Assembly (NCBI GenBank): GCA_964590105.1
Contig: CAZPYM010000004.1
Location: 52,198-116,197 of the forward strand
Source of the DNA: an uncultured Gammaproteobacteria bacterium
GTDB lineage: Bacteria; Patescibacteriota; Patescibacteriia; UBA11705; JABHMO01
DNA: 64,000 nucleotides
Direction of reading: 5' to 3'
Positions 9,626-49,069 of this stretch are shown here, in pieces (the first letter of the stretch is position 1; every line of letters begins with the position of its first letter). The position numbers and the translations under genes are program-made. The notes under the pieces were generated by a model. It worked only from the letters and a program-made list of their open reading frames with translations. It did not search any database and was not told the DNA's origin.

Positions 9626-9921
9626 AGTGGATCAATTAATAATTAAAAATTAGTGGTGCGTGGTGAAAAATCACAAATTACAAACAATAAAGCGGAAATT
9701 ACAAATTAGGATCATCAATCTCTGTAATTCCCGCCATCCGGCGGGCAGGCGTATATTCATAAAATCCGCACTTTCGCATCCTCAATAATTCCCGCCATCT
9801 GGCATCCGCCGGACAAGTTCGCCGCACGATCCCCATTTATCTCATCTTTTTTTATTTTCTATTCGCTTCAATCTTCTTTATCCTCTTTCCCATAATAGCA
9901 AAATTTTAGGTTTTTCAAAAC

Positions 9922-10281: not shown

Positions 10282-10334
10282 ATATAAATATAAAAATCAC
10301 AAGTCACAAACAACAAATTACAAACAATAAAGCG

Positions 10335-10425
10335 GAAAAAGGTGAAAGTTAAAAGATAAAAGGTAAAAGTTAAAATCGAAATTCAGTTTACACAATTAAC
10401 CTAATTAACTTAATTAACTTTCCTA
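10335..10425. repeat. composite intergenic repeat: (g)gtaaaag units, then tcgaaattcagtttacacaattaacc, then a taattaact array
   Basis: Near-identical composite copies at 20163-20262 and 36428-36580. A reverse-orientation copy lies upstream of the plus-strand SPFH gene (59570-59700). The ttaattaact arrays alone occur at 4729-4790 and 5305-5493. Confidence 0.6.
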
Positions 10426-10470
10426 CATTAACCCGAGCGAGGAGGAACGACGAGTCGAGGGTCGCGTTTT

Positions 10471-24000: not shown

Positions 24001-27000
24001 ACTCGCCCGGCTTTATTTCTGATTGCATTTTTGACCATTTATTATTGCCTTCCTTGTCCGGCGCATAGGCTGCCGGCTCCCACAAATGATCGCAAAGGGT
24101 CACGTTCAAAAGCGCGGTGCCATATTTTTGCGCGCCGAGCGTACCGAGCGCGCCGCCGGTCAGTGGACTCGCTTCGGAAATGTTATCCTTGGTCACCACA
24201 ACATTGGCCATAATAGTGGCCGAGCCATTTTTCGCCAGATTACGAACATTGACAAAGTCGCTATCTTTTTTCTGGTTTGAAAGAGGTTGAATCGGCTCAT
24301 CAACGCAATCAGAACCATCCATTTTACAAGTATGAACAGAATCAACAATAGACATGTCGCTAGCCGTCCAGTCCCACACCCATTCATACGTTCCTGGCAT
24401 TTCTGTTAATTTCTGCTCTCCGCTTCTGGCCGTGGCCCTGAATGTATTGGTTTGATTGGCTTTTGTTACGAAAACCTGTTGCGGCTCAACAATCACATTA
24501 TCAAGCAGACAAATACTGTCGCCGGCAACAAAATTTAATTCAAGATTTACCGGCTCATAGGTTTCATCGCAATTATTTTTCAAGTTTGAAAATTTTAACT
24601 TATACTGCTTGCCGACCTGTAGCACTTGCTTTGGCGTAATGCTAAAATTAGTGTTCCCGACTATATTAGTCGACTCATTCATAGTCATCCCGACCTCGCA
24701 CTCCACAGTGGCTGCAAATCCGACTTTGACTAATAAATTTCGCACAAATTCTTTTGCTTTTGAATACCACGATCCCGCGCCCTGCGACAAGCCTGTCGGA
24801 CAACTACCGTCAGACATTAGATATAATTTTATAATAGCTTCGTCAGAATAAACTTTTTTATTAAAAGAAGTATAAAGCATAGCATTCGGACAAACATCAA
24901 CCGAGCCATTGACCGGTGAGCTCGCGGCATCATCAAAACCAAGCCCCGCCGTAGCTTCGCAAATTATTGGATCAATTATCGAATCATCTTTTTTACTCCA
25001 ATCATCAATATGCGGCAAAATATCTTTATATTTATTAATCAAATCAGGATCATTGGTTCTGAATGCAAAGTCTCCCATTCCGACCTGCGCCTCATCAGCT
25101 GGGTTTTCTTTAGTTGAAGTTTGAATCTCAGTATCGCCGATAATATATCCGGTTGCTACATCATAGAAAAAATTATTTTGCGTTGCGCCGGACTTCAAAG
25201 TTCCGTCCTCATTAAAGTAAACAGAATCCAAATAAACTTCCAAACCGCTCGGAACTGAAGTCGCCATTTGATACGGACTGCCATTCTGTCCATTGCTAAG
25301 GCCTATCGTGCACAACCCGGCATTTATTTCTGCCTGACTGCATTCGCAAATCAGATCCTCTCCAGCCTCCGGCGTACCATTGTTGCAATATGAAGGATTA
25401 TCATACGCATATGAAGAACCCAGATTTAAACATTTGGCGCTACAATAATCAGGCAGGGCGCAGGCACAATCATCTTCACCAAATAAACAAGAGACATATT
25501 CACTGCCGTCCAATTTTTTGCAAGTTGCTTCGCACTCTTCGTCATTCTTGCCATCGCCGTTATAATCCTCGGGTATTCCGTTGCCGCAACAATTGGAACA
25601 CTCACAATCAGGCGAACCAGCTAAGCACGCTTCGGTCTTGCTACCGGTAGCGCAATCTTGGGCCGACACAGCGCAAGACAAGGACAATATTTGTTTTCCG
25701 ACCTCGCCTTGACATGCTGCACAAGAAATCTTTTTCGCGCCGTCTTTTTCACAAAAAGGATTTGTCCCTTTATCGCAACAATCCGCATCAGTTCCTTTGT
25801 TGCACAGTATTTCAATCTGGCCACCTGCGCATTGATTGCAGTCAAGAATTTTTTGGCCGTCACAATCAGGATCATCTTGAAAACACGTTTCTTCTTTATA
25901 TCCGTCAGCGCAGCCATTTGTAACACCCACAATACAGTTGATTGTTTTTGTCTCGCACTCCTCGTCTTCTTGACACGGAATATCCACCGTACCGATACAG
26001 TCCGCTCCCTCGTTGCAAGCGACCTGTTTTTTGCCCACGCATCCGGGATCGCCGGCTTCACTAGCAGAACAAGCAATTTCCTTAGTACAATTACTAGTGC
26101 AAGTCGGGAAGCCTTTCCAAACGCAAGTATTGGTGCAATTGGACTCGCCTTCGCATTCTTCGCCAACCTCTAGAACGCCATTGCCACAAACTGCCGCGGC
26201 TAATTGTTCGCCGAGCTTATAGGCAGATCCTTTATATAAACATTTTTCATTTAATCCTGCTTCGCTGTTTTGCCCACCGAAATCAGCGTCTTCGCCGGAT
26301 TCTTTTTTTCCATTGCCACAAACAAAACCAGCCGCTGTTCCGGTATTCAAACAACCGGCTGTGCAGGCTGATCCCTTGGCCACGCAAGAGCAACCTTGTA
26401 ATCCGGACACCGGCACACAGGCCTGGCCATTAACATCCAGATAATCACAACCTTGGTCGCATTCTTCACCGGGCTCGATCTCGCCATTACCGCAACAATT
26501 AGACTGGGTCTTCGGATCAGCGCAATTGGCCAATGGTTCGCGGAGGCAAATCTCACTGCAGCCATCTTCATTTTCTATATTGCTGTCATCGCATTCTTCA
26601 CCCGGCTCAATCTCGCCATTGCCGCAAACAGCGGCAAAGGGAGTACTGCCAATCGCCTGGCATTTGTCATTGCAATACGGTTTAGTTTCCACCCCGAGGA
26701 GAGTATTGGTAATGCTGGCCACTACCGGCTTGGTACTCAGCCAATCCCAATCATAAGCAAAGGCGTCCAAAAGCTGACCGCTGGCACTGCATTCATCAGG
26801 CGCGGAATATGGCGCGGCCCAGTATTCAACTTTTTCTTTTTCCTGCTCCGACATATATTCTACCGGTGCGGTTTCCACGCGGTCTATTTTGCATTCTTCA
26901 GGATCATCTTTTGTTTTAAATATCCAACTAAAAGCGTCATATTGTCCGCTCGCGCCAATTTCAAATGATGACACAAAAGCGCACTGCGGATCCGGGGCTA

Positions 27001-30000
27001 GATATTCGTTTTCTGTTTGAATTGTTTCCAGTTCTGCCTCGTCAGTAATCACAGCATTATTTTCTTTTAAATTAACACAGGCAAACTGGATATTTTCGTC
27101 ATCCTGACAATTCGGAGTTTTAGAAATTTCAGCAAAAGAAACAATTATACCGGCCGCCTGGTCATAACAGCCGCAGAGATAATCAAGGTTTTTGTCTTCC
27201 GCTCCCACAGCTGAATAACCGCCGCTCACATCCGCTTTGCCGTCGGCGTCATCGTCTTTTCTATTGCCGCAGTCTCCGCCGGGCGCGTTCCCGGTGCTAT
27301 AATTCAGACCGGTCAAATTAACTCCGCTGTAACTTTTTACTCCATTCGTCACAACCATGCGATAATAAGTATTTGGCTCCATTTTATTCGGATGAAGAGA
27401 AATTTTCAATTCATGAATTGACGTGCCGTAATATGGATTCTCCACTTCCTGATAATCAATCTTGCTTTGATCCAGACCAAAATCAGTCAAAACTACGCAA
27501 TCTGACGAATAGCACGAATAAAGCTTGACTGTTTCCGGCATGAAGCTGTCCTTGTCCATGAAAGTATTAAAATTCGCGCCAATACTGGCATTAATACAGG
27601 CAAAATTGCAATTAGGATAATAGGAAATTATTTTCGGGTCAGCAAATTTAACTTTCAAAAAACCTTTTTTATATAAACTGTCAAATGTATCTTTTAATGG
27701 ATCATCTTGTGTCAACTCAGCTTCAGCCGCTATTTCCATTGGTTTGCCCGGAGGAGTTTCAAATGTCTGCCCCTGTCCGAGCTCTGACAAAGACTTCAAC
27801 TGAAAATACCCCGAACTGCTGATAAATTCTTTAGGAGCTTGGCAAATCAGGCCATCCGCTGGCTCAAAACAAGCATAGCCGGCAAATTCTGCTTTCTGCT
27901 TGTCTATGTCTTTGACCATATCCCACTGCCAATCCTTGTCGCTAAGACCGATTTCCTGGCACTGGTATTGGCCGGAAACAGTATATTTTTGCTTGCCGTC
28001 AATAGTTTTAATCAATCCGACCAGCGGACTCATTAGCAATTTATCCGGCACGCAATTCTCGCTTTTGGTTTTAAATTTCCAAGTGTAATCATTGAGCATA
28101 TTGACATAGCCCTCGAAAAAATCGCTGTAAGCGCTCACGCCGCCAGTACCGCCTTTTATTGTCACTTGATACCAAGTGTTTTCGTGTAGATTATGATTGC
28201 CTTCCTGCACGATAGAAGGAACCAAGTCATTTCCTTCGTTTAATAGTGAAGAATCCAAGCTGAATGCTGTCACCTGGTCTCCAATACAAAAACAATTATC
28301 TTTATTTATTTCCGGATCGCAAGTTTCATTACCCGGCTGTCCGTCAATATAGCAAGACAAATTAAGGTTAGTTAAATTAAAATCATTGGAATGCGCGTTG
28401 GTTATTGTCCGCGAAACGCAGTCATTTGGATTGCAAATATCAAAATTACATTCCCCGCCTTGAGTATTTAAGCATCTTTTTATTATAATATTATTTTGAA
28501 AACTATTTGCCTCGGGATCAGTCTTCATTATCATGTTGAAAGTAGCTGAAATAAGGCCGTTCGGACAGGCGTTAGTAGTATTTTTAAATGGCGACGGCGA
28601 CTGCGTATACTGTCCCGGCCAACAGCTCCTCTCAATCACTCGCGGATAAGTCGGCAAGGGGCCAGTACTCATCATCCACATGTATTCGGATGGCTCATAG
28701 CCAACCTCCACCGTACAAGTACCAACCGTCTGACAAACGCCGGTAGAACAACATTCTTCGCCCTCTGCGCAAGAGTTGGCGCTACAACTGCCTACAGTAA
28801 ATGAAACTGAATTACTCTGTTTTTGATCACTTTTCACAAAAACACCGCCGGACAAAGCTTTCTCCGGCACTACCGCATTTTCAATCAATATGGCCGACCA
28901 ATCGCCAAAGCTGGTCGCGATCCCCGGATCCGGAACCTTTGCGCATTGGCAAGTTTCATCCTCGTCTATGTCGCACGGAGCCACGCCATCCGGACAATTG
29001 ATCTTTGGCCCGCCGGTTTTGGAAAAATACACCTCACCTTCATTACCAAAATATTCGCCTTTAAAATCCACGCCAATGCCTTCAGGGCCATTATTCGGAT
29101 CAAGGAGACAAAGCCCTGGACCAGGAGGCCCTTCCACAATTTCATAATCATACGGATCGGTGACCAAACCCTGAGAAGTATATAAAACTATTTTGTATTC
29201 ATCGCTGTAAGCGCTCTCATCGGACAAAGCAGGGCTCGCAAAAGTGTTTAATATTGTTTCCGGAATTTTTATGACAACCTCACTGTCAGACCAGCTTTCC
29301 GGTCCGCAGCCAATCGCCGTAATCCAATCGTAATTGTCGCCGCCAATTAATCGATGAATCTCCACGTGTCCTGTATCATTACCAAAATATTGTCCTGAAA
29401 TAGTAATCAATTGCCCGATTGGCGCGGGCGCCGGCTCCACCATGTCAATTTTTGGCAGATTTTCTGATGGCACTATTTCAAATCGCACTGGATTGCTATA
29501 CAGATTTTTGCAAAGGCAATCAGCTATATTTTCTGGTGTTTGCTCGCAAACTGCTTTAGTTGTTTTATCCAAGCATTGTGGGCCTTTATCAATTACTGTA
29601 TTTTTTTTGCCTTTTTCTAATAACGGAATCTGCAGACTCAAAATTGTTTCCGGACTCCAAGCAAATCCAGCCCCCTGCAAAAAGTTAATGCCCCCGAGAA
29701 ATGCGGCATCGTCATCATCTTTCTGGCCGAAATTATTGCCGCCAACTCTTACTAAATTATTTACCGCCCCTTTATCGCAATGAACTTCAGGTGTCGGTTG
29801 ACAGCCCTGTAGTGTGACAGAACACAAACCAGGATAATTAATATTTGAATCAACAATAAAATCGCCTACCCAGCCGTCGTCATCATCAGTCGTGTCTTCA
29901 TTATTTAAATAATTAACAACCTTAATTGGGCCGGTAATCGCCTGCGCCGGCACTTTGGCAATTATTTGATAATTATTCCAAGCTGAACTAGCCTGACAGC

Positions 30001-31939
30001 CAAGCTCAGCCGGAATATAAGCTCCGCCCGGTCCGGTAAAATAAACCTTGCTGCTATCCGGGTCATAATTCAGAAACCCAGCACCAACAATAGAAACCAT
30101 ATTCCCCGGTCCGCCGGTTTTTGGCGCGACATCGGCAATCACCGGTTCAGTGGCGCAAAAACCAAGGCAAGCCGCGCCATCGCAGTCACTGTCAGTTTCG
30201 CAGGCGTTGGCTTCTTCATTGTCACAATTTTTCACACAAATTCCCGCGCATTCATCGTCACTACTACAGACCTCTCCGTCGCACTTGCCGCAATCCGGAT
30301 GATCCTTGCTACAAACAGGCAGACCATCCTGATCAAAACAATATTCCGGCAAAACTGAAACCTGAATTGTTTTCTCTCCCTTGTGGTCGTTAATATCCTC
30401 CACCTCGGCTTTCAGGCTGTGTTTGCCAATCTCCACGCCATCGGTGTCCCAGATGAAAAAACTGGAATATTCTAGCGGCGATTGACCGTCTGGAGGCGTG
30501 TCAATATCATAATAGGCGCCGTCAACAAACAAGCTGACATTACTCACTCCACCATCGTCAGTCGCATTAGTGTTTACTTCAACATCAGCATTCTGGCTGA
30601 CCGAGGTTGTGGGCGCTGTAAAATATACCTCCGGCGACTTGGTGTCAATTAATTCGCCACTGGTAAAGCTAGTGGAACACAAACTGCCGAGCGAACATGA
30701 GAGCCCCAGATCGCCGGCCAATGTTTTCACACCACCAGATTTCAGAGTTACTTTATAGGCGGTATTTTTATCAAAACAGAATAAATCCTGATTTGGTTCG
30801 GGACAAGCCACGCTCGGAGTAAAAGTAACTTTTTGTTTATTGACCGCGTCAACTTCCAGGTTGCCTTCGACGGCGATTTCTTCACTTTCCACAAAACCTT
30901 CATATTCAACATTCAAATTAATATAATCAAATTTAAGACAATTACCGCCCGTCCTGTACCAGGAAATATAAAACTCGCCATTGTCAGCATTTTCATAGCA
31001 AGTCGCCGGCACATCTACCTCGTTAATGCCCGGTGGCGGCAACCAATCAGTTTTTATCGCTGTTGAAACATCTCCGTTTATTTCATCGCCGCATTTAATA
31101 GTCATCTTCGCGTTGCTACCAGAATTAGCACTCTCAAAAATCAATTTAGCGGCCAAGGGTTCGGCGCTACCTATTTCCGTAATGTCAAAAAACACTTTCA
31201 TCGGCGTGGCACCCAGATACTCATTACTACAAACCACCCATGTATTATTCCATATGTTATCGTCCTTTATTATATCGCTCAAAATTGTTTCGCCGTTGCC
31301 ATTGTCTTCCTGGACTTCATAAGGTTCCAAGTTTTCATTCAACACGCCCTTTTCGCCCTGCTTAGTAATTGTAATATTATCAGCAGTAACCGAGTCAGGA
31401 TTAACTGCTTTGGAAAAAATCATCTTTACTTTAACATTTCTGATTGGTACATTGCCCTGCGGCGATACTGTCTTGACAATGAATGAAATCCCCGGCGGAC
31501 TCGGAATATAGCCCCCAGGAGTATACTCGCCAGTTCCGCCGCCGTCGGTTGCCTCAGACAATTTGGTTAGAACAAATGAAGTGATGGCATAAGCGGAAAA
31601 AATAATCACCAGTCCTATGAGACCATTGATCAACCACTTTTTGGCAGTAGTGACTTTTTCGGCATCGCCACCAGCTGTCATGTACAAAAATCCGGCGTAT
31701 AAAACTATTACCAGTCCTATCACACCGATAAATCCCAAAAATATTTTTATAATTTTCCCGATCGTTACTTTTAAATCCTGATTGCCAAGGCCGGATGCAG
31801 TCCCCACTTGATCAAGGCCGGCAACTGCTCCGTTGTCAGCAAAACTAATTCCGATAGAAAACAAAAATACGCCGGTAATGAGGAGAATCATCATCAGACT
31901 AAAAATTTTCCAATATTTTTTGCTCGGTCTGACCAGCAT
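21065..31939 (-). CDS. giant (3624 aa) multidomain cell-surface protein: signal peptide plus pilin-like two-helix hairpin, IPT/TIG-like domains, Cys-rich CGNGxxExGEECD repeats, LamG-like domain, C-terminal VWA domain
   Basis: Single uninterrupted ORF. N-terminal signal/TM, then the hairpin IIKIFLGFIGVIGLVIVLYAGFLYMTAGGDAEKVTTAKKWLINGLIGLVIIFSAYAITSFVL (~nt 31564-31756). IPT/TIG-like PVIADVAPKTGGPGNMVSIVGAGF. Myxococcus-type Cys repeats VCGNGEIEPGEECDD and CCGNGEIEPGEECDQ (~nt 26400-26700). Cys-bracketed Asp loops CKDGLDNDSDGLID and CNDGIDNDSDGLID. MIDAS-like FFIDGSLSMD near the C-terminus (~nt 21070-21700). Confidence 0.7.
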   Translation of the reverse strand: MLVRPSKKYWKIFSLMMILLITGVFLFSIGISFADNGAVAGLDQVGTASGLGNQDLKVTIGKIIKIFLGFIGVIGLVIVLYAGFLYMTAGGDAEKVTTAKKWLINGLIGLVIIFSAYAITSFVLTKLSEATDGGGTGEYTPGGYIPSPPGISFIVKTVSPQGNVPIRNVKVKMIFSKAVNPDSVTADNITITKQGEKGVLNENLEPYEVQEDNGNGETILSDIIKDDNIWNNTWVVCSNEYLGATPMKVFFDITEIGSAEPLAAKLIFESANSGSNAKMTIKCGDEINGDVSTAIKTDWLPPPGINEVDVPATCYENADNGEFYISWYRTGGNCLKFDYINLNVEYEGFVESEEIAVEGNLEVDAVNKQKVTFTPSVACPEPNQDLFCFDKNTAYKVTLKSGGVKTLAGDLGLSCSLGSLCSTSFTSGELIDTKSPEVYFTAPTTSVSQNADVEVNTNATDDGGVSNVSLFVDGAYYDIDTPPDGQSPLEYSSFFIWDTDGVEIGKHSLKAEVEDINDHKGEKTIQVSVLPEYCFDQDGLPVCSKDHPDCGKCDGEVCSSDDECAGICVKNCDNEEANACETDSDCDGAACLGFCATEPVIADVAPKTGGPGNMVSIVGAGFLNYDPDSSKVYFTGPGGAYIPAELGCQASSAWNNYQIIAKVPAQAITGPIKVVNYLNNEDTTDDDDGWVGDFIVDSNINYPGLCSVTLQGCQPTPEVHCDKGAVNNLVRVGGNNFGQKDDDDAAFLGGINFLQGAGFAWSPETILSLQIPLLEKGKKNTVIDKGPQCLDKTTKAVCEQTPENIADCLCKNLYSNPVRFEIVPSENLPKIDMVEPAPAPIGQLITISGQYFGNDTGHVEIHRLIGGDNYDWITAIGCGPESWSDSEVVIKIPETILNTFASPALSDESAYSDEYKIVLYTSQGLVTDPYDYEIVEGPPGPGLCLLDPNNGPEGIGVDFKGEYFGNEGEVYFSKTGGPKINCPDGVAPCDIDEDETCQCAKVPDPGIATSFGDWSAILIENAVVPEKALSGGVFVKSDQKQSNSVSFTVGSCSANSCAEGEECCSTGVCQTVGTCTVEVGYEPSEYMWMMSTGPLPTYPRVIERSCWPGQYTQSPSPFKNTTNACPNGLISATFNMIMKTDPEANSFQNNIIIKRCLNTQGGECNFDICNPNDCVSRTITNAHSNDFNLTNLNLSCYIDGQPGNETCDPEINKDNCFCIGDQVTAFSLDSSLLNEGNDLVPSIVQEGNHNLHENTWYQVTIKGGTGGVSAYSDFFEGYVNMLNDYTWKFKTKSENCVPDKLLMSPLVGLIKTIDGKQKYTVSGQYQCQEIGLSDKDWQWDMVKDIDKQKAEFAGYACFEPADGLICQAPKEFISSSGYFQLKSLSELGQGQTFETPPGKPMEIAAEAELTQDDPLKDTFDSLYKKGFLKVKFADPKIISYYPNCNFACINASIGANFNTFMDKDSFMPETVKLYSCYSSDCVVLTDFGLDQSKIDYQEVENPYYGTSIHELKISLHPNKMEPNTYYRMVVTNGVKSYSGVNLTGLNYSTGNAPGGDCGNRKDDDADGKADVSGGYSAVGAEDKNLDYLCGCYDQAAGIIVSFAEISKTPNCQDDENIQFACVNLKENNAVITDEAELETIQTENEYLAPDPQCAFVSSFEIGASGQYDAFSWIFKTKDDPEECKIDRVETAPVEYMSEQEKEKVEYWAAPYSAPDECSASGQLLDAFAYDWDWLSTKPVVASITNTLLGVETKPYCNDKCQAIGSTPFAAVCGNGEIEPGEECDDSNIENEDGCSEICLREPLANCADPKTQSNCCGNGEIEPGEECDQGCDYLDVNGQACVPVSGLQGCSCVAKGSACTAGCLNTGTAAGFVCGNGKKESGEDADFGGQNSEAGLNEKCLYKGSAYKLGEQLAAAVCGNGVLEVGEECEGESNCTNTCVWKGFPTCTSNCTKEIACSASEAGDPGCVGKKQVACNEGADCIGTVDIPCQEDEECETKTINCIVGVTNGCADGYKEETCFQDDPDCDGQKILDCNQCAGGQIEILCNKGTDADCCDKGTNPFCEKDGAKKISCAACQGEVGKQILSLSCAVSAQDCATGSKTEACLAGSPDCECSNCCGNGIPEDYNGDGKNDEECEATCKKLDGSEYVSCLFGEDDCACALPDYCSAKCLNLGSSYAYDNPSYCNNGTPEAGEDLICECSQAEINAGLCTIGLSNGQNGSPYQMATSVPSGLEVYLDSVYFNEDGTLKSGATQNNFFYDVATGYIIGDTEIQTSTKENPADEAQVGMGDFAFRTNDPDLINKYKDILPHIDDWSKKDDSIIDPIICEATAGLGFDDAASSPVNGSVDVCPNAMLYTSFNKKVYSDEAIIKLYLMSDGSCPTGLSQGAGSWYSKAKEFVRNLLVKVGFAATVECEVGMTMNESTNIVGNTNFSITPKQVLQVGKQYKLKFSNLKNNCDETYEPVNLELNFVAGDSICLLDNVIVEPQQVFVTKANQTNTFRATARSGEQKLTEMPGTYEWVWDWTASDMSIVDSVHTCKMDGSDCVDEPIQPLSNQKKDSDFVNVRNLAKNGSATIMANVVVTKDNISEASPLTGGALGTLGAQKYGTALLNVTLCDHLWEPAAYAPDKEGNNKWSKMQSEIKPGEYHTTYIYENNFNVGLFYCRDFGGPGFEDDLPKLEIGEVEFAGKAPKPRYGIYFDKSFDYVKVPDSGSGNLSFMNNENNPWTIETWLYSEEIPEDRYARIFYKNLSDSSTFEDGKTNNHVQMALRKWGLDCDDDCEWSYENGPNSNNCTCAEEKASIIYTIKTPTHGIVRATTDGVGLLSKGFNHIALKYDGAGGNTTLYVNGVDVTPADNENTVLHVWPRNQAEKDVTVDNDYQSLFIGGLGKTQVPLVSLAGYVDDFRIWNIAKDPQTEDLVNPLGEPNLVGYWKFDENINDVKGLASISKCTVDYIDSKCDPNENFYIINLTELAKEKGLIGGAENIWEELAQDTENQCNDGIDNDSDGLIDIGDHKCKSDTDPWEDPELFEQYFFVRDKSAGPTNDYSSDVISLRIYENPEALPPDIWYQRYAPNPAPTTAEVKIDCQQDRFGKYCYTGAKDGTTVYAAASNMAPVNADDVVNIYNNIYVLGYSQGSNAATQNIYSQLVNLLWFNTDIVTNNLSIVKPELIRDTQRISDMVLTRAYIELYKKTPPHNGAAPLLDAGTYVRGRSFSIWPSWQKELGKALGQTLPTDPLNHFAWEQATKENPGVECGGSGENTYSCPVGGSASDYQCVVPQEFCVNCPVGYDMQTCYNSANQKFSNFYDTNPNLHSVYSYLVDPLETGNTSAYDLQFSLEVPSLEEDASPMYSYKFVPGWGGGDSGWQPLPSQAEVGEVPQCKDGLDNDSDGLIDYPNDLGCATSDDNDEYDAESEAGCDKTLFVFFIDGSLSMDNNPGNDVTKYHRTILNTIVDAAHTVLDGDDYYLVQQSGAGFTGSAGWTSNSQVKLVDPVSNEPQFVKDQINTSSYVGAGNMAKWIDVEFQAANLIKGDYDRVTYILITDASDTGDEPLRNADIALAQEQNANIHLIYIRKDGSPPTVNQEAFFKKYADDTGGLFFLGDETTLSANLGDLVGAVATCKGPAIY

Positions 31940-32098: not shown

Positions 32099-34183
32099 CT
32101 AATGCTCTGGCACACTACACTCAGTTTTGTCTTCTCCGACCAAATTGAACTCCCCCTTTTGTGGACAACAGGAAGTACCAGGGCCACCAATACTTGAACA
32201 TATGCTCTCAGCAACTCCCCCAGTATCTTTTGTCGGGCTATAACAATTCATTCGTGTATCTTTTACTTCTGATTTAATAACCGGCGCGTAAATCGGAATC
32301 ATGGGACTGGCTTCATCATATTCAGCAAAAGGTCCATGGCTAATGGATATTTGGGTAGCCAGAGGCTGAATCATCCCCCCGGCATCAAGATATTCTCCCA
32401 TGTTGGGATCATACCAGCGACTAAAATCTGACTCATCAGAATTCTTGCCGAGAAGCTCAACCTCGGTATCAACCGAATAAGCGTCCAAATCTTCATTAAA
32501 ATTCGCTGTAATCAATATTTGTAAATCCTCAATATTTTCAGTCTTATTATCCGGCAAAACATTTTCGAGAAATGGCGGAGTCAGGTCGAGCGTCTTGCCG
32601 GTTAAAAAATCCCAAAAATAATTATCTATTTGAGCTACTTTGTCGTCGGCGTCGGCATTGATATTGCCTGGGCCCTCGGCTTTGTCATTGGCATTGCCGT
32701 CAAGAGAATTGCCACCCATGTCCATGATGCCCGTGCCGGGTAGAGCCACGCCCTCGCCGACTAATTTCGCCGCTAGAATTTTGGTAACCAAAGTGGCGTC
32801 AGTAGGCAAGCAAAAGGCCGGCTCGCCGCAGGAATTTTTCGCGCCGCCGGCGCACTCGGTGCCTGAAATAAACTGAATGGTTTTATATTTATTGATGCCG
32901 ACTTTCCACTTGCCCGGCAAATGGTTGGTCGAACAATCGCCAATATTTCCGTTCAAAGAAATAATTTGCGCTTCATTATCTTCATCCCCTCCTTTGCACC
33001 CTTGCGTCTGGGTCAAGGGCGGAATTACCGGTTCATTAAAATAAACATAAACACCTTGATTTAAATAGACTTTGTGATCGCAATCCACTTTGGAACAGCC
33101 GATTTCTTTTGGCGAACATTTACAGCCAGCCGGATTACTGACCGGATAGCTGACATCAGCCGGCAAAACCGCGCTGATTTTCGGCGGAGTCAAGTCAAGC
33201 ATGGTGCTGGTGGTAAACCGCCACTTGTAATCAGGATTTTCCGATGTAAATACTGTTTGCGCCGGATTATTTTCTTTTTTAATGCCATTTTTCAAATAAA
33301 CAATATAAGCCATATCTTCTTCAGGACTACCCAGATGATCTTTTTTGCTATCGCCATAAGGATTGAAAATAATGGTCTGATGATCTTCAGTCAAAATTGC
33401 GTAACCAGGAACCAATTTTAAATCATCGTTTATATCCTTAACGTCTGACGCAAGGCAAGTAATCTCAGCCGGATTATCATAATTTTCCGCAATCATATCC
33501 GAGCATTTGAAAACGCGGAAAGCATCTGCTTTCAAAGCGCCGCAATTTGCCAGCTTCGAACCGTCCGGCATATCAGGGCAAAGTCCATTAACATCCATGT
33601 CAATAACCGAACTCGGCAGAACCGGTGTTTTGAAAGTAACAAGAATCATAGTATTGCGCGGCACGCCGGTTTGTTCCGGCGCCGGATAATGGCTTTGGAT
33701 CACATCGCCAAAAGCGCCATTGGACAATCCATATCCGCCGCCAAGAAAACCCGCTTTTTGATATACGGTTCCCGCCGGACTCATTTCCTGGCCGGAAAAC
33801 ATTTTCAATAAAAATGCTGTAATGGAATAAGCGGAAAATATTATCGCAAGACCAATGACAGCATTTATCAGCCACTTTTTGGCTTTAGTGACTTTTTCAG
33901 GATCACCGCCGGCCGTCATGTACAAAAATCCGGCATATAAAACAATACAAATAGCGATAATACCAATCACGCTTAAAAATATTTTTATGATATTGCCGAT
34001 TATTACCCGTAAATCCTGTTTTACCATTCCCGCTTCCTGCGCCACAATATCAAGATTGGCCGCGGCATCATTGCTCTGCGCATGCGCAATAACCGGAACA
34101 AACAAAAAAACTGCCAATATAAATACAAAACAACCGGCAGTTATTTTTGTGGCTAACTGAAATGAGTTTTTGCGAAAAATCAT
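32099..34183 (-). CDS. large (about 695-709 aa) surface protein with N-terminal signal peptide and the same pilin-like hairpin as the giant protein
   Basis: Signal peptide ...FVPVIAHAQS. Hairpin IIKIFLSVIGIIAICIVLYAGFLYMTAGGDPEKVTKAKKWLINAVIGLAIIFSAYSITAFLL is about 80% identical to the giant-protein hairpin. The rest is extracellular and Cys-containing. Start at 34183 (SD-like GAGGGG upstream) is preferred over 34228. Confidence 0.6.
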   Translation of the reverse strand: MIFRKNSFQLATKITAGCFVFILAVFLFVPVIAHAQSNDAAANLDIVAQEAGMVKQDLRVIIGNIIKIFLSVIGIIAICIVLYAGFLYMTAGGDPEKVTKAKKWLINAVIGLAIIFSAYSITAFLLKMFSGQEMSPAGTVYQKAGFLGGGYGLSNGAFGDVIQSHYPAPEQTGVPRNTMILVTFKTPVLPSSVIDMDVNGLCPDMPDGSKLANCGALKADAFRVFKCSDMIAENYDNPAEITCLASDVKDINDDLKLVPGYAILTEDHQTIIFNPYGDSKKDHLGSPEEDMAYIVYLKNGIKKENNPAQTVFTSENPDYKWRFTTSTMLDLTPPKISAVLPADVSYPVSNPAGCKCSPKEIGCSKVDCDHKVYLNQGVYVYFNEPVIPPLTQTQGCKGGDEDNEAQIISLNGNIGDCSTNHLPGKWKVGINKYKTIQFISGTECAGGAKNSCGEPAFCLPTDATLVTKILAAKLVGEGVALPGTGIMDMGGNSLDGNANDKAEGPGNINADADDKVAQIDNYFWDFLTGKTLDLTPPFLENVLPDNKTENIEDLQILITANFNEDLDAYSVDTEVELLGKNSDESDFSRWYDPNMGEYLDAGGMIQPLATQISISHGPFAEYDEASPMIPIYAPVIKSEVKDTRMNCYSPTKDTGGVAESICSSIGGPGTSCCPQKGEFNLVGEDKTECSVPEH

Positions 34184-34253
34184 TGTCCCCTCTGCGTTTG
34201 ACAACCAGTCAGCTCTCTCAGGCGCCAAAACGCTATTATTCTTTTATTTTTGT

Positions 34254-41072: not shown

Positions 41073-41088
41073 TCGATTTACGTACCGG

Positions 41089-41994
41089 CTAGCGCCGGCG
41101 ACCTCCTCGCGAACCGCGAGACGATCTGCCTGCTCCGACCGCCGGCGCAGAACGCCCTCGACCGGATCCACGCACACTAGCGCCCTTTGCCTTGCCGGAC
41201 GAGCGCTTCTTGCTCGACTTCGCAGCCGGCCGCGAATGCGACCTTGCCCGCGAATGCGCACTGTAGTTCGTGCCACGGCTACGGTGCTGACTGCTCCGAA
41301 ACTTCGGCTTGCCCTGCACCCGTATCCGCGTAGCGGCTGAATGGTGCTGGGTTTTTCCCTGATACGTGGCTTTACCCTTGGACTTGGCTTTGCCCTTGGG
41401 CTTGGCTTTGCCTTGATACGTGGCTTTGCCCTTGGGCTTGGCTTTGCCAGAATTTACCTTGTGCTTCTGGTGGCTCGAGTGAGCCGCCGTCTGCTTGTGG
41501 TGAGCGCCGTGATTGCCGTGCCCCTTCCACTGAACTCCCCAGTGATGGGGGTGGGCGTAGGACTGATGCGGCCGATGACGCCAGTACCACGGATGCACCC
41601 AATAGCTGTGTCCGCCGTACGAGTAGGAATGGTACCGGTGATAGCCGTTGTGATACCAGAAGAACGGCCAGCCGGAATAGTAGATGTACGACCCGACATA
41701 GAATCTGGGCCAGGCATCCACATACACCACGGTAGTCGGCTCTTCAAAGTAGTAGCCGTTCCACCCCTCGCACTGCTCCCAGCAGTCACACTCTTCCTCT
41801 TCCCGGTTGGAACACTGTTCCCAGCAAGGACATTCTTGCTCGCTCTCGCCAGCCTCGACAGCCGAGTCAGAGTCTCCAGCGGAGCCCTCTTCCTGATCCC
41901 ATGACGACTCATAGTCGCCGTAGGACTGCCCGCTGGCGAACGAACTGAACGCGAACATCATCGCGAACACAAAATAACAAAGAACTGTTCTCAT
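41089..41994 (-). CDS. secreted low-complexity protein: CxC/CW motifs, Trp/Tyr/His-rich core, Lys/Gly-rich KAKPKGKATYQGK repeats, Arg/Ser-rich tail
   Basis: Strong SD GGAGGTGA 5 nt upstream of ATG 41994 (MRTVLCYFVF...). Signal peptide ends ...FASGQSYG. The gene carries tandem DNA repeats at 41340-41460. GC is far above the window average. Confidence 0.45.
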   Translation of the reverse strand: MRTVLCYFVFAMMFAFSSFASGQSYGDYESSWDQEEGSAGDSDSAVEAGESEQECPCWEQCSNREEEECDCWEQCEGWNGYYFEEPTTVVYVDAWPRFYVGSYIYYSGWPFFWYHNGYHRYHSYSYGGHSYWVHPWYWRHRPHQSYAHPHHWGVQWKGHGNHGAHHKQTAAHSSHQKHKVNSGKAKPKGKATYQGKAKPKGKAKSKGKATYQGKTQHHSAATRIRVQGKPKFRSSQHRSRGTNYSAHSRARSHSRPAAKSSKKRSSGKAKGASVRGSGRGRSAPAVGAGRSSRGSRGGRRR

Positions 41995-42149
41995 TTTCTC
42001 ACCTCCGTGTTGTTGTTTCAAACTCTATACTTCATTCTAAGTTTAGCACAAAAGAAAAAATTTGTCAAGGGTGGCAAATGTCCAGATTACTCGCATATCA
42101 ACTTCGAATCTGTATATAGATTTGTAGATCTGTACCCTTTAAAAAAAAT

Positions 42150-42180
42150 GGAGCCCCGTCGGTATGAACGACAGGGCTCC
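42150..42180 (-). terminator. terminator-like hairpin (gagccccgtcg...cgacagggctc, one mismatch) with an A-run on the plus strand (T-run on the minus strand)
   Basis: Read directly. Downstream of the 42189..42470 gene. Confidence 0.4.
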
Positions 42181-42188
42181 GTTGAGAA

Positions 42189-42470
42189 CTAGTAGCGATA
42201 CGCCCAGCGGGCGCGATGGGCGCGATGGGTACGGTGGGGACGATGAGTGCAATGGGCGCGGTGGGCGCGATACTTGCAGTTCAAGGATCGGTAACTACGG
42301 TGCGACCGGTAAGAAGAACGGCAGTAATCGCCGTCGTAGTAGTAACCGTAGGAACACGCCGGTCGCCGGTAGGAGGCGTCATCGTACGTGTAACCGTACG
42401 TGCCGCAGCAGCCACCGAGGCCCAGAATTACCAGAGCGAAAAGAACAACGATCAAAAGGACTTTCTTCAT
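42189..42470 (-). CDS. small lipoprotein-like secreted protein, Tyr/Arg/His-rich
   Basis: SD AAAGGAGA upstream of ATG 42470. Signal peptide MKKVLLIVVLFALVILGLGGC with a lipobox-like LGGC. Mature part is Tyr/Cys/Arg/His-rich (YGYYYDGDYC, HRAHRTHRAHRAR). Confidence 0.4.
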   Translation of the reverse strand: MKKVLLIVVLFALVILGLGGCCGTYGYTYDDASYRRPACSYGYYYDGDYCRSSYRSHRSYRSLNCKYRAHRAHCTHRPHRTHRAHRARWAYRY

Positions 42471-42534
42471 GACGATCTCCTTTTTCCCCGCCCATGGCGG
42501 GGATCTTTGTGGATTTTCCTTCTTCAAGTTTGCT

Positions 42535-43056
42535 TCAGAGTCCGACAGTGCTCATGTCGCAGAGCAGATCCAGTCCCGGTGTTTGTCCCAGGAAACCACC
42601 GCCGGCAACTATGCACGCCTGCAGTTTTTCCGTGTAGAAGGCATTCCCCTCCATTCCGGGAATCACGCAGATGACGGAATTTCCGCTGCCTTTCAACAGT
42701 TGCCCCTGTCCGGGAAACTCCTTGCAGAGCTTTTCCAGGCTGTCGAGGCGGACGTTGTTGTAGTGGAATGTTGCGCCTTGCTCCGACGCCTCGCTGGCCT
42801 TGCTCATCTGATCTCCGGCATCCACCGCGCCGAATCCTTCCGTTGCGGTGACCACGACACCAGTGCCGAAATCGCCGACGACCGACTTCTCCGCCAATGC
42901 CGTCGCCGTCTCGATCTGCTCGACCGTCGCGCTACCACACCGACCCGTCACTTCCCGCTTGATCTCGTCCAGCCTACGTAACGTGATTGCACCGAAACAC
43001 ACCACGAGCGCATACACCACTATGCCACAAAGCATCACCACTGATTTCGTCGACAT
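42535..43056 (-). CDS. membrane-anchored hypothetical protein (paralog of 43114..43512)
   Basis: SD GGAGGAAGGAGA upstream of ATG 43056. N-terminal TM (VVMLCGIVVYALVVCFGAI). C-terminal ICVIPGMEGNAFYTEKLQACIVAGGGF...LLCDM is conserved with the next gene. Confidence 0.4.
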   Translation of the reverse strand: MSTKSVVMLCGIVVYALVVCFGAITLRRLDEIKREVTGRCGSATVEQIETATALAEKSVVGDFGTGVVVTATEGFGAVDAGDQMSKASEASEQGATFHYNNVRLDSLEKLCKEFPGQGQLLKGSGNSVICVIPGMEGNAFYTEKLQACIVAGGGFLGQTPGLDLLCDMSTVGL

Positions 43057-43113
43057 GTTCCTTTCTCCTTCCTCCGCCGCAGGCGAAGAGTTTTGGTTAC
43101 TTCTTCATTTCAC

Positions 43114-43512
43114 TCACAAACCGCACAAGATATGCAATCCTCCATACCGCACCGGCATTCCTCCTTCCCGTTCACAGGCAGCCCACTTTTCATCGAAGCC
43201 GTTCCCAGCCGCCTTGGGAATGACGCAAATCTCCACATGGCCATTGGTAGACACTGTCGACCAAATCTCGCCCTGAACTCTTTCGCAGTCTTTCGCCTGC
43301 GCCGGTGTCAGCCTCTCTATCGGAACCGCGGCCATCAGACGCGCGCCATGCGCCATCGGGACCTCCTTGACGTCGCCCAGCGACGGCTCCTTCACCTTCT
43401 CGAACACCGCTGGCCGCCCAGTGGTTTCTTCGTCCGGTCCGAGCAGGCAAAAGAAAAACATCGCAACAATCGCCACAAAAATTCCGCCAACTACGATACC
43501 AAGTGGTCTCAT
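43114..43512 (-). CDS. membrane-anchored hypothetical protein (paralog of 42535..43056)
   Basis: SD AAGGAGGA upstream of ATG 43512. N-terminal TM (IVVGGIFVAIVAMFFFCLLG). C-terminal ICVIPKAAGNGFDEKWAACEREGG...LHILCGL shares the Cys pattern with its neighbour. Confidence 0.4.
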   Translation of the reverse strand: MRPLGIVVGGIFVAIVAMFFFCLLGPDEETTGRPAVFEKVKEPSLGDVKEVPMAHGARLMAAVPIERLTPAQAKDCERVQGEIWSTVSTNGHVEICVIPKAAGNGFDEKWAACEREGGMPVRYGGLHILCGL

Positions 43513-44020
43513 CGCTTCCTCCTTAAAATGTTAACTTCAAAGCTCAAAGCTAAAAACCAACATTCAAATTGATTTGCAACTTTCAACTATTAAAATACTT
43601 GATTTACGTGATTTATTACGTGATATTACATGATAATCACGAACAATATCTTGGCGCGAAGCTATCACCTCTCATTACGTAGCCATCACGTAAACCACGT
43701 CTTTTATAAAAAAACAGCTGACCCGCACAATCAAGCTTACCAGCTCAAGTTCCTTCAGTAAACTGACTGAACTTGACTTGCGGTTACTCCACAGCATAGG
43801 AGGGGACACTGCTTTTCTCCACTGGCAAGCATGATTTCACGGACCAGCTTGTATAATATGATACAGAATTGCTGATCAAACTTGTTTCATCCAGATTTTA
43901 TATTATCCCCGATTAAGTTGTCAAGGATTTCTCATGTAATTAACCATTTCATTATATCATATTTTTGACAAAAAGTCAATAGGCGATTAATAATTCAAAA
44001 TGCTTTGGCTTAAATTAAAC

Positions 44021-46741: not shown

Positions 46742-48085
46742 ATGTATTACTCTAATCTTCCTATGAACTTCCAATTATATAAACAATATTTAGAGGCTGA
46801 ACAATATCTCGAATCCATCGGCAACATGAGCAATGTTAATTTTTTCGAAGGAACGTCCAATCCGGAGCACCATTTCGCGCGCGCCAAATATCTTTTGAAA
46901 TTGGCCGGAAATCCTGACAAAGGCCTGAAAATAATTCATGTGGCCGGCACCAGCGGCAAGGGCTCGGTCGTGAATTATATTTATAACATTTTGCAAAAAG
47001 CGGGTTATAAAGTCGGGGCCCACTTCTCCCCTTTTATTTCCGTGTCCACGGAAAAAGCGCAAATCAACGGCCGCTTCATTTCCGCAAAAAATTTCATTGA
47101 GCTGGTGGAACAAATAAAACCGATCATGCAAAAATGCCATGAAACTTTTGATACGCCGAGTTATTTTGAATGCTGGCTATTAATTGCCCTGCTCTATTTC
47201 AAAAAACAAAAATGCGATTACGTCGTGCTTGAAACCGGCTGTGGCGGGCGCTATGACGCCACGAACGCTGTTCAAAAAACACTTGTTTCAGTTATCACCA
47301 ATATCGGCCTTGATCACATGCATATACTCGGGAACACGATAAAACAAATCGCTTATGAAAAAGCCGGCATCATCCGCCGGCGCGGAAAAGTTTTTACGGC
47401 CGCGCAAAAACCGGCGGCGCTGAAAGTTATTCAAGATACGTGCGACAAATTATTTGCTGACCTTACAATCGTGATTAACAGTCAAAAAACAAAAAATCAA
47501 AAAAACGAAAAACCAAGCCGGCTCGATCAACCAATCAACCAATCAACCAATCAACTTTTAGCCGCTGAAGTCGCCGAACACTTGGAAATTTCTCATAAAG
47601 ACATTGAACGCGGCATTGAACAAGTTAATCCCCTGCCGGCGCGCCTCGAAATCATCCGGCATAATCCTTTAGTTATTCTCGACGGCGCGCATAATCCTGA
47701 CAAACTTGACTATTTGGCAGAAAAAATTAAAAATCTGAAATTCAAAAAGCTCCACTTAATCTGCGCTTTGGGTCAGCACAAAAAACCAAAAAATTGTTTT
47801 AAAGAATTAATTAAACAAACCGATTCTCTGTATACAACTCGTTCGCTTTTGGCTTTCAGGAAGTTCATTGATCCCATTGTGGTTGCCAAAGAGTTGAAAA
47901 AAATAAAACAAATTCCAACACAAATTTTTCTCGATCCGCAAGATGCGCTGGCGACCGCTCTAAAAAAAGCCAAAAAAAATGATTTAATTTTAATCACCGG
48001 TTCATTTTTTCTTTGTAGCGATTTAAGAAAAAACTGGGTCAGCGAGGAAAAACAGCTTGAGCAGAGAACAAGTTTTCCAAAATAA
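46742..48085 (+). CDS. folC: Mur-ligase-family folylpolyglutamate synthase / dihydrofolate synthase-like protein
   Basis: P-loop IIHVAGTSGKGSV. Mur ligase middle and C-terminal domains (LILITGSFFL). Contains an NQPINQSTNQ low-complexity insert. Confidence 0.7.
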   Translation: MYYSNLPMNFQLYKQYLEAEQYLESIGNMSNVNFFEGTSNPEHHFARAKYLLKLAGNPDKGLKIIHVAGTSGKGSVVNYIYNILQKAGYKVGAHFSPFISVSTEKAQINGRFISAKNFIELVEQIKPIMQKCHETFDTPSYFECWLLIALLYFKKQKCDYVVLETGCGGRYDATNAVQKTLVSVITNIGLDHMHILGNTIKQIAYEKAGIIRRRGKVFTAAQKPAALKVIQDTCDKLFADLTIVINSQKTKNQKNEKPSRLDQPINQSTNQLLAAEVAEHLEISHKDIERGIEQVNPLPARLEIIRHNPLVILDGAHNPDKLDYLAEKIKNLKFKKLHLICALGQHKKPKNCFKELIKQTDSLYTTRSLLAFRKFIDPIVVAKELKKIKQIPTQIFLDPQDALATALKKAKKNDLILITGSFFLCSDLRKNWVSEEKQLEQRTSFPK

Positions 48086-48096
48086 ATTTTTTAAAT

Positions 48097-48140
48097 AAAA
48101 AAACCCGTCTCGAATATTATCAAGAGACGGGGTTTTGCAT
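48097..48140. terminator. bidirectional rho-independent terminator (stem cccgtctc/gagacggg flanked by an A-run and a T-run)
   Basis: Read directly between convergent genes at 46742..48085 (+) and 48141..48605 (-). Confidence 0.6.
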
Positions 48141-48605
48141 TTAAACGATCTTTTTCCAGCCTTTGTCAGTTTTCGCAAAATAGTTATAACCGAATCGAAT
48201 AAGCGCGAACTCACTCGAAAAAACTCGCCACGACACCAAATACTTGAACAGCTTTTCCGACAAAGTTCTTGCCCTTTTCAATTTTCTGCCGACCTCGCTA
48301 TTCACGTCAAAACCGACCAAAAGCATTTCTAAAGACAGCCCATTGACTGAACGAGTCCTTTTCTTAATTTGCATCTCCACTCTTGATAATCCAAAGTGCG
48401 AACGCGCATCCTCGTCAACCCAAATCATCACGCCGCCGCTTTTCCAGAATTCATCATTAGCCTCTCCGGCCACTGCGGCATATCCTTCTTTTTTATTGCG
48501 CAGATTTTCTTGCGCCGCCGCTATTGCCTTTTCCGCTTCTCTTACCGCGGCTTTCTTTACCCGACATTCCTGCAATTTTGCCCTTAAGGCTGTTAAATCT
48601 TTCAT
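48141..48605 (-). CDS. hypothetical soluble protein (154 aa)
   Basis: SD GGAGGT 4-5 nt upstream of ATG 48605 (MKDLTAL...). The track start at 48677 would overlap the upstream gene by 70 nt. GC is above background. Confidence 0.35.
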   Translation of the reverse strand: MKDLTALRAKLQECRVKKAAVREAEKAIAAAQENLRNKKEGYAAVAGEANDEFWKSGGVMIWVDEDARSHFGLSRVEMQIKKRTRSVNGLSLEMLLVGFDVNSEVGRKLKRARTLSEKLFKYLVSWRVFSSEFALIRFGYNYFAKTDKGWKKIV

Positions 48606-48607
48606 CT

Positions 48608-49069
48608 TCAACCTCCATCGTTCACATTCAAAATATCTTCCAACGCGCCGGCATAATGCCTCCAAAACTCTATCCAATTTAACAGCAATTTTGTATAGGC
48701 ATTATTAAACCACACAAGCGGAAAAAATGCCCCGGAAAAAAGGAAAAAAAGTCCCAAAGACCCGAAAGCATCGTGAAGACCGCACAAACTCAAAACAACT
48801 GCTACGAAGAAAAACACAATTGCCACCACGACCATCCAATGGATCATTCGAATACGACCCAACAAAATTCGATCCCAATGCGCCACCTCTTCCATGTCAG
48901 CCGTAAGCCGCTCTTTCACCTTTGAAGAAAGTCCGGTTCTTACCAGCGTTTCTTTCCACTCGGACAGATCAAACACTTCTAATTGCCCGAACATCAATCT
49001 AGCGCCAACCTTTTTGCCGGTCTGTTCGGTTTTTCTGCGGAATTCAAGTATGTTGTTCTTGTCATTCAT
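48608..49069 (-). CDS. hypothetical membrane protein (153 aa, 2-3 TM helices)
   Basis: SD GGAGGT 6 nt upstream of the ATG. Hydrophobic core IHWMVVVAIVFFFVAVVLSLCGL and LGLFFLFSGAFFPLVWF. Coupled to the downstream gene with a 2-nt gap. Confidence 0.35.
   Translation of the reverse strand: MNDKNNILEFRRKTEQTGKKVGARLMFGQLEVFDLSEWKETLVRTGLSSKVKERLTADMEEVAHWDRILLGRIRMIHWMVVVAIVFFFVAVVLSLCGLHDAFGSLGLFFLFSGAFFPLVWFNNAYTKLLLNWIEFWRHYAGALEDILNVNDGG

Follow-up and report, generated by a model that had tools for sequence, protein, structure and literature searches.

The 64,000-nucleotide stretch of DNA analyzed here (the window; assembly GCA_964590105.1, contig CAZPYM010000004.1, positions 52,198 to 116,197) comes from an uncultured bacterium placed within the Patescibacteriota and carries, between the housekeeping genes pth and dprA, a GC-rich block of four minus-strand genes, g1 to g4 (window positions 41089-43512), for predicted exported or membrane-anchored proteins. 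A preliminary description had proposed that this block was acquired horizontally. Read along the minus strand, the locus begins with mem224 (44725-44051), a gene for a 224-aa polytopic membrane protein with the Shine-Dalgarno (SD) sequence AAGGAGGT and a third-codon-position GC content (GC3) of 0.516; a terminator scan placed its terminator at 44045-44026. Two sigma-70-like promoters follow, TTGACT-17-TATAAT (43979-43951) and TTGACA-18-TAAAAT (43924-43895), each matching at 11 of 12 positions in the promoter scan and each with hexamers conserved in two related lineages, L090 and L091. Downstream lie a conserved structured small RNA (43851-43708; identified by covariance model and folding), a 195-nt AT-rich stretch in which a repeat search revealed ACGTGAT boxes (43707-43513), and then the genes g4 (132 aa; 43512-43114; SD core AAGGAGG), g3 (173 aa; 43056-42535; AAGGAG), and g2 (93 aa; 42470-42189; AAGGAG). 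The g4-g3-g2 unit is closed by an intrinsic terminator (42180-42150) with a 12-bp stem, including 9 GC pairs, and a T8 run. The last gene, g1 (301 aa; 41994-41089; SD core GGAGGTGA), has its own sigma-70-like promoter in the AT-rich g1-g2 spacer (TTGACA-17-TAAACT with a TG element, 42068-42040, 10 of 12 matches) and shares with plus-strand pth a bidirectional intrinsic terminator (41065-41044), an inverted repeat that forms a GC-rich stem of 9 bp, with a T-run following on each strand. The promoter scan gave no match between the small RNA and g4, from which co-transcription of g4-g3-g2 with the RNA is inferred.

The compositional anomaly of the block was confirmed in comparison with its flanks. 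GC was 0.565 across the 2,424 nt of 41089-43512, against a mean of 0.424 (standard deviation, 0.021; maximum, 0.488) in 567 equally long segments elsewhere (z = 6.6), and the tetranucleotide distance gave z = 8.5. As the preliminary description had judged by eye, the change was abrupt, with a rise just after the pth terminator and a fall near ~43545: in 300-nt sliding windows, GC ran at 0.52 to 0.64 from ~41090 to ~43510, with a single internal dip to 0.43 in the g1-g2 spacer (42000-42190), and at roughly 0.32 to 0.44 on both flanks; directly at the borders it was about 0.38 to 0.41 before the rise and 0.38 to 0.44 after the fall. No other 1-kb bin of the window exceeded 0.50. GC3 of g1 to g4 was 0.63 to 0.70, versus 0.436 ± 0.045 (maximum, 0.568) for 32 other genes, and G-ending codons were abundant in these GC3-rich genes. 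The high GC was limited to coding sequence: the internal promoter, the terminators, and the main spacers of the block had host-like AT content, with GC of 0.41 between pth and g1, 0.39 (0.387) between g1 and g2, and 0.31 to 0.34 upstream of g4. When each protein was re-encoded with the host's own synonymous codon frequencies to yield expected values, g1 was expected to have a GC of 0.517 (observed, 0.594; host background, 0.437) and a GC3 of 0.47 (observed, 0.69); about half of its excess thus derives from amino acid composition and about half from synonymous codon choice.

Translation signals also distinguish the cluster. The SD cores of g1 to g4 span 6 to 8 nt, whereas among 40 other open reading frames (ORFs) of the window, 19 had no SD match at all and just 4 had a core of at least 5 nt, in line with the earlier claim of strong sites in a window where many housekeeping genes lack one. 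The seven credible SD-bearing ORFs of the window, namely, g1 to g4, mem224, the ORF at 48608-49069, and a lipoprotein gene at 61549-62118, all encode membrane or exported proteins, and the same contrast, between housekeeping genes lacking an SD and cluster homologues with AAGGAGG-type sites, recurred in every lineage examined (L007 to L010, L090, and L091). SD-led initiation that is confined, within the window, to envelope proteins could represent a translation rule or a regulatory split. That the housekeeping genes are leaderless was considered and rejected: a -10-like hexamer lay 3 to 14 nt before the start codon in 8 of 36 ORFs, versus 4 at each control offset, and with so weak a signal these genes are called non-SD rather than leaderless. 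Literature searches turned up nothing relevant, either on translation without SDs in Patescibacteria or, by sample accession, on the environment sampled.

Both the assembly and the minus-strand reading frames are well supported. Contigs of Logan, ENA, and JGI assemblies from different samples encode a protein identical to g1, with SRR8437217, ERZ27248895, and JGI 3300028191 among the samples that have the contig; the six independently assembled contigs that were fetched were 100% identical to the window, and two of them (L001, 31089-47554; L002, 38911-51994) span both junctions of the block, which excludes a chimeric assembly. In comparison with the closest relative bearing the locus, L008, substitutions at codon positions 1/2/3 of the minus-strand frames numbered 48/44/91 for g1, 20/16/38 for g2, 33/31/58 for g3, and 38/30/49 for g4. 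This third-position excess, combined with amino acid identities to L008 of just 60 to 74% for g1 to g4 but 91 to 92% for Pth, indicates genuine, fast-evolving genes. The many overlapping antisense ORFs are artefacts, as had been surmised, given the substitution pattern and the conservation of the g2 lipobox described below. Public gene calls on identical contigs nonetheless annotate one of them, a 102-aa plus-strand ORF (42164-42472), where g2 lies; by the same evidence that call appears to be wrong and g2 correct, exposing an annotation error in which an antisense ORF replaces a lipoprotein. Two independent assemblies (ENA ERZ27248920 and JGI 3300028191) break at 42720, inside g3, and two contigs end at 31089, inside a giant ORF described at the end of this text; these breaks may reflect strain variation or repeats.

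The g1 product (pI 9.8) was described earlier as a signal peptide protein with ECPCWEQC and CDCWEQC motifs, an aromatic core (HSYWVHPWYWRHRPHQSYAHPHHW), KAKPKGKATYQGK repeats, and an Arg/Ser tail, and every one of these elements was found in the translation. A signal peptide (residues 1 to 22) precedes an acidic head with a net charge of -18 and 6 Cys in CxC and CxxxC arrangements (residues 23 to 79), an aromatic and His-containing beta core with 26 Tyr, Trp, or Phe and 10 His (residues 80 to 155), a His/Lys segment with the KAKPKGKATYQGK repeats (residues 156 to 215), which are encoded by an 18/54-nt tandem repeat at 41346-41448, and an Arg/Ser/Gly tail with a net charge of +25 (residues 216 to 301); the whole protein contains 22 His and 7 Cys. 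Its Sec-type export signal, with MRTVLCYFVFAMMFAFSSFASG directly before Q, was read directly from the sequence, as was the g2 lipobox below; equivalent N termini are conserved in six homologues, and AlphaFold2 (AF2) predicts a helix at residues 2 to 19. The six homologues share the core pattern YF.EP..VV...WP...G...Y...P..W...Y.RYH..Y....W and invariant E54, C55, and C71, and four of the six end in an Arg run. The C-terminal tail is Arg-rich in the window and Lys-rich in low-GC L090. The AF2 model of g1 was poor, with a mean pLDDT of 48.7 and values of ~75 reached only by a beta-meander at residues 103 to 133, and the protein is therefore probably largely disordered.

The g2 product (93 aa; pI 9.8) is rich in Tyr (14), Arg (14), and His (7), contains 6 Cys, and carries a 9/27-nt tandem repeat in its gene (42209-42271). 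Tested against the consensus [LVI][ASTVIG][GAS]C after an N-terminal signal peptide, it has the lipobox LGLGGC, with MKKVLLIVVLFALVILGLGG directly before the Cys, which sustains its earlier designation as a Tyr/Arg/His-rich lipobox protein. Both the signal peptide and the lipobox recur in L008, L090, and L091, and the Gly-preceded Cys is conserved in four lineages. A GC-rich hairpin in the g3-g2 spacer, TCCCCGCC(ATG)GGCGGGGA (42485-42503), abuts the SD of g2 on its upstream side and could influence translation or the processing of the mRNA. The g2-like lipoprotein (9467-9871) and the g1 homologue (10001-10630) of L091 share the same tail, ..PAKRGGK...RRRR/RRHR; the former has four DTRPSAYDMRRAPRH repeats, and the latter a lipobox-like ISSGC.

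That g3 and g4 encode membrane-anchored paralogues with a conserved C terminus was upheld: BLASTP aligned their C-terminal 45 residues at 42% identity (E = 1e-5), and the pattern C..CVI..GN.F..K..C..GG..LC, with four Cys, is invariant in both. For g3, AF2 gave a helix at residues 3 to 39, a disordered acidic linker at 40 to 101, and an alpha-beta-beta-alpha-beta-beta domain at 104 to 167 with pLDDT values of 75 to 84, which predicts a bitopic membrane protein with an N-terminal helix and a C-terminal four-Cys alpha/beta domain of ~65 aa; g4 has an N-terminal anchor and a C-terminal four-Cys domain like that of g3. The overall layout of helix, linker, and C-terminal alpha/beta domain of ~65 to 70 aa recalls bitopic assembly proteins of pili and secretion systems whose periplasmic domains are ferredoxin-like (GspL/PulL, GspM/PulM, and PilO). 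Unlike those proteins, g3 and g4 have four conserved Cys, a disordered acidic linker in place of a coiled coil, no sequence-family match, and no pilus or secretion genes nearby. Foldseek searches with the g3 model returned generic ferredoxin-like matches, including PulL at a target-normalised TM-score of 0.51, a generic level, and hence no family claim is made.

Database searches left the cluster proteins as orphans. Neither g1 to g4 nor the homologues scanned with them had a match in Pfam, NCBIfam, PHROGs, or PADLOC, with hits far below the cut-offs only; sequence searches of the PDB with profiles of both families found none either, and mem224 was likewise without a match in Pfam, NCBIfam, or the PDB. 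A word-indexed search of 5.8 billion proteins returned three hits to g3 and one to g1, a profile search with the g3/g4 family recovered clade members only, and when 1.84 billion representative proteins were searched exhaustively by HMMER with a profile of the g1 core, three matched in total (P0004, P0007, and P0008). Homologues of g1 were restricted to sister genomes (P0004, P0007, P0008, L008, and L090), and those of g3 comprised P0002, P0003, and L090 positions 4289-4840; viral contigs matched neither the two protein families nor the RNA motif. The homology searches thus found relatives in no more than a handful of sister genomes, and we recognize here three orphan protein families with predicted export (g1, g2, and g3/g4), plus a fourth associated membrane protein, mem224.

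The locus is nevertheless shared, in place, among these relatives. Ranked by housekeeping identity, they were L008 (Pth, 92%), L007 (Pth, 76%), L090 (Pth, 67%; DprA, 72%), and the outgroup L010 (Pth, 60%; DprA, 47%), the nearest of the species representatives in the genome collection; Pth matches beyond L010 were at most 48 to 49% identical and spread over several phyla. L008 carries g4-g3-g2-g1 beside pth in the same order as the window, and in L007 a g1 homologue adjoins pth. A 302-kb contig of L090 has the order pth, g1 homologue, g2-like lipoprotein, RNA, mem223, and dprA, with a g3-like gene beyond dprA, and L091 the order pth, g1 homologue, repeat-rich g2-like lipoprotein, RNA, mem230, and dprA. 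A g1 homologue was accordingly found at pth in every sister lineage recovered (L007, L008, L090, and L091); the L009 sequence is too short to include pth. Homologues of mem224 occur wherever those of g1 and g2 do and are absent in L010. In that outgroup the LytR-Der-Pth-DprA-TopA-RelA order is kept, but the site is empty: pth and dprA are just ~220 nt apart, a spacer that contains the RNA and none of the cluster genes. Presence in L090 and L091 and absence in L010 imply either a gain before the L090/L091 split from the window lineage or a loss in L010. The outgroup differs at a second place as well, between dprA and topA (window, 46742-49069; L010, 4875-4975; L090, 1864-4840), where the extra genes encode a FolC-like protein and a pair of small membrane proteins; the L090 g3-like gene stands beside these small genes.

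The compositional deviation is shared as well. Relative to expectation from re-encoding, GC3 was elevated in the g1 homologues of L090 (0.47 observed, 0.34 expected, 0.31 background) and L091 (0.42, 0.35, and 0.295, respectively) and in the g2 homologues of L090 (0.51, 0.33, and 0.31) and L091 (0.48, 0.33, and 0.295). The L090 g3-like gene showed no such excess (0.353 versus 0.352 expected).

The small RNA (43708-43851, minus strand) was found by the covariance model once each in the window, L090 (7297-7439), L091 (9247-9388), L010 (3588-3695, minus strand), and L009 (1-83) and was absent from 80 other pth loci. In the window, L090, and L091, the RNA block that follows the mem224-type gene is conserved far better than the flanking proteins; the L010 version, in the pth-dprA spacer, is shorter and is present despite the missing gene cluster. 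Folding z-scores against shuffled sequences were -5.7 for the window and -11.1 for L010. An alignment of four sequences showed a long closing helix (~28 bp) and 34 predicted pairs, 5 of which have compensatory changes, together with an invariant motif, UCCCCUCCUA, that is complementary to the SD sequence. The RNA ends in a T-run and has the two conserved promoters upstream. In all four lineages with the region available (window, L009, L090, and L091), the cluster's first gene follows the RNA directly and in the same orientation; in L009, the RNA stands just before a g3 homologue. Rfam 15 had no family at the gathering threshold except a distant tRNA, and permissive searches (E up to 5 to 10; the window and the RNA region in two genomes) gave chance-level hits only. 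Signal recognition particle RNA, 6S RNA, and Y RNA were discarded as identities, with no Rfam match and, by eye, none of the expected motifs. The element appears to be a new, previously undescribed RNA of ~145 nt that may serve as a leader or regulator of the cluster. Between it and g4, ACGTGAT and ATCACGTAA boxes recur at ~10-nt spacing (43591-43706), accompanied by a 22-nt inverted repeat (43591-43612 and 43685-43706) and a tandem repeat of TACGTGAT (43596-43635); boxes and inverted repeat could form an operator. This stretch was seen in the window lineage only and is not alignable in L090 or L091.

These observations lead us to favor, with restrained confidence, the reading that the block was assembled correctly and is an accessory locus, specific to one small clade of low-GC, uncultured bacteria and vertically maintained there, for exported orphan proteins with a role as a cell-surface module. 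Relative to the nearest outgroup, the cluster genes are located between the conserved small RNA and the pth terminator. The two strong promoters would drive a structured RNA of ~145 to 180 nt, which g4-g3-g2, lacking a convincing promoter of their own, would follow up to their terminator, while g1 would be expressed from its own promoter to its own terminator. Together, g1 to g4 would form a cell-surface or host-interface module in which g1 and g2, as disordered chains of cationic and aromatic character, bind anionic polymers, be it the cell's own wall, a partner cell surface, or DNA; their Cys/His clusters might also bind metal, and their partners, anchored in the membrane, would be g3 and g4. 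The metal-binding, adhesion, and antimicrobial roles guessed at in the preliminary description fit the composition of these proteins. As we read it, the whole clade retains the richness in GC and GC3, the SD-led translation, and the rapid mosaic evolution as traits of these families, and none of them is the scar of a recent transfer. Several points weigh against this reading: the empty site of L010 could equally stem from an old horizontal gain or from a loss; the sample comprises about five independent lineages, several of them on short contigs; the causes proposed for the persistent GC3 excess are candidates only; the inferred co-transcription rests on a missing promoter match between the RNA and g4; and no homologue or confident fold backs the proposed function (g1 being modeled at the low pLDDT given above).

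The claim that the four genes form a horizontally acquired island we regard as unlikely. In that scenario, a GC-rich donor that relies on SDs would have supplied them together, whether in recent times or in a single event at the root of the clade, and their composition would still be that of the donor. The appeal of the claim lies in the GC and tetranucleotide z-scores, the high GC3 and G-ending codons, the strong SDs in a genome mostly without them, and the empty outgroup site, which would allow for a single old gain at the clade base but likewise for a loss in the outgroup. Donor composition at synonymous sites is expected to decay over divergence such as that seen here. The locus, its SDs, and its GC3 excess are, however, kept in lineages with Pth identities of 67 to 76%, where, by established expectation, synonymous sites should have drifted to host composition, so the excess is most simply explained as maintained rather than inherited. 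Sister homologues at pth with SDs and GC3 excess over Pth identities of 67 to 92% likewise leave a recent horizontal island unsupported. No donor homologues emerged from either the 5.8 billion or the 1.84 billion proteins; AT-rich sequence makes up the promoter, the terminators, and the main spacers within the block; and at the borders (41076 and 43545-43700), where a look for att-like sites or direct repeats had been suggested, the only direct repeats were short chance ones. No integrase, transposase, or other mobility gene lies between pth and dprA, and the window's sole tRNA is at 63908. Measured against what defines genomic islands, the block has the deviant composition but neither mobility signatures nor patchy presence with donor homologues; the island reading thus gains partial support at most, and acquisition as a discrete island was not borne out as stated. 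It resembles genomic islands in its sharp GC, GC3, and tetranucleotide deviation, its accessory surface protein genes, and its absence from the nearest outgroup. It differs from them in lacking mobility genes, att repeats, and tRNAs, in having its GC richness confined to coding sequence, in being syntenic, with the deviation kept over species-to-family-level divergence, and in having no known donor family. A sharp island of GC and codon usage therefore need not mean recent transfer; where the deviation is conserved in a gene family over deep divergence, another cause is called for, e.g., biased gene conversion or selection.

Such a cause would be at work if the block were a recombination hotspot between strains or paralogues, with GC-biased gene conversion raising GC3 and shifting residues toward Arg, Gly, Ala, and Pro, a scenario to which we likewise give a minor share of probability. 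It draws on a 65-nt module, encoding VVGDFGTGVVV.ATEGFGAVD, that is 92% identical between window g3 (42819-42883) and the g4 homologue of L008 (148-212), i.e., between nonorthologous paralogues, and 88% identical to L009 positions 435-477, in a gene otherwise 33% identical at the protein level. This module points to module exchange or to nucleotide-level constraint, and its mosaic distribution makes recombination with GC-biased repair a candidate cause of the GC3 excess. The faster evolution of the cluster genes than of flanking pth, their internal tandem repeats, the two assembly breaks inside g3, and the exchange of Lys for Arg between the g1 tails of low-GC L090 and the window are all consistent with the same process. 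The L090 g3-like gene without GC3 excess argues against it.

Control by the small RNA offers a further explanation, one that we consider improbable: through its invariant CCCCUCC, acting as a cis leader or in trans, the RNA would mask the SDs of SD-dependent envelope genes and so place them under separate control in a genome where initiation is otherwise SD independent. Its constant position and orientation ahead of the first cluster gene in four lineages, the invariance of the motif in four sequences, the lack of a promoter match between RNA and g4, and the restriction of credible SDs to membrane and exported proteins are in keeping with this idea, and in a ranking of predicted duplexes over 44 start regions, g2, g3, g4, g1, and mem224 all fell within the top 9. 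That ranking is circular, however, since CCUCC will pair with any SD, and beyond the SD no complementarity was seen. The RNA also occurs in the outgroup without cluster genes, and its motif can pair with an internal GGAG of the RNA itself. Among known systems, RsaE/RoxS of Firmicutes are regulatory small RNAs with C-rich loops that pair with SD regions; the RNA described here is like them in its invariant C-rich motif complementary to the SD, its own promoters, and its T-run. It is unlike them in its single long closing helix of ~28 bp and in matching no Rfam family, RsaE included, at E values up to 5 to 10 on the RNA strand.

Alternatively, g1 and g2 could be extracytoplasmic metal-binding or metal-buffering proteins that act through their CxC/CxxxC clusters and His-rich stretches; this is a weaker alternative to the surface module and, in our estimation, a doubtful one. 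The 22 His and 7 Cys of g1, its three residues invariant in six homologues, and the 7 His and 6 Cys of g2 would suit such a role; with CxC and CxxxC clusters that lie in an acidic segment, and with stretches rich in His, the two recall metallothionein-like proteins with CxC clusters and His-rich metal stores. Unlike these, however, g1 and g2 match no metal-binding or other family, are extracytoplasmic, where Cys may simply form disulfides, and lack a metal-related gene context: no metal transporter or sensor lies nearby, and no known metal riboswitch was detected.

More ambitious still, and quite improbable as a whole, is the possibility that, in this small clade of reduced bacteria, a dedicated set of rapidly evolving surface proteins follows a regime of its own, one that is SD dependent, GC3 rich, and controlled by an RNA with an anti-SD-like CCCCUCC loop, with g1 as a new cationic, aromatic adhesive or polymer-binding protein directed toward a partner cell. 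By analogy, g1 resembles mussel foot proteins in being secreted, disordered, strongly cationic, and built in part of short Lys/Tyr/Gly/Pro tandem repeats (KAKPKGKATYQGK in the window, KGKKYA in L090). In contrast to them, it is bacterial, shares no homology with them, and has no DOPA-forming enzyme known here; adhesion is thus suggested by analogy only. Finally, that the block is a chimera, a contaminant, or noncoding GC-rich DNA with artefactual ORFs, as the abrupt change in composition and the long ORFs in several frames might have intimated, is virtually impossible given the identical independent assemblies over both junctions, the synteny kept in relatives, the frame-specific third-position substitutions, and the conserved signal peptides.

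Surface and host-contact functions are the main unknowns of small-genome bacteria, and the three orphan exported families, mem224, and the new structured RNA add cell-surface candidates in a poorly known group of them. Elsewhere in the window, on the minus strand at 21065-31939, lies the giant ORF of 3,624 aa; the neighboring 694-aa gene (32099-34228) has precomputed hits, on the public contigs identical to the window, to T4SS_pilin, TrbC, and Big_5, and a contig of the L091 lineage encodes a 3,938-aa T4SS_pilin protein at the position equivalent to the giant ORF.

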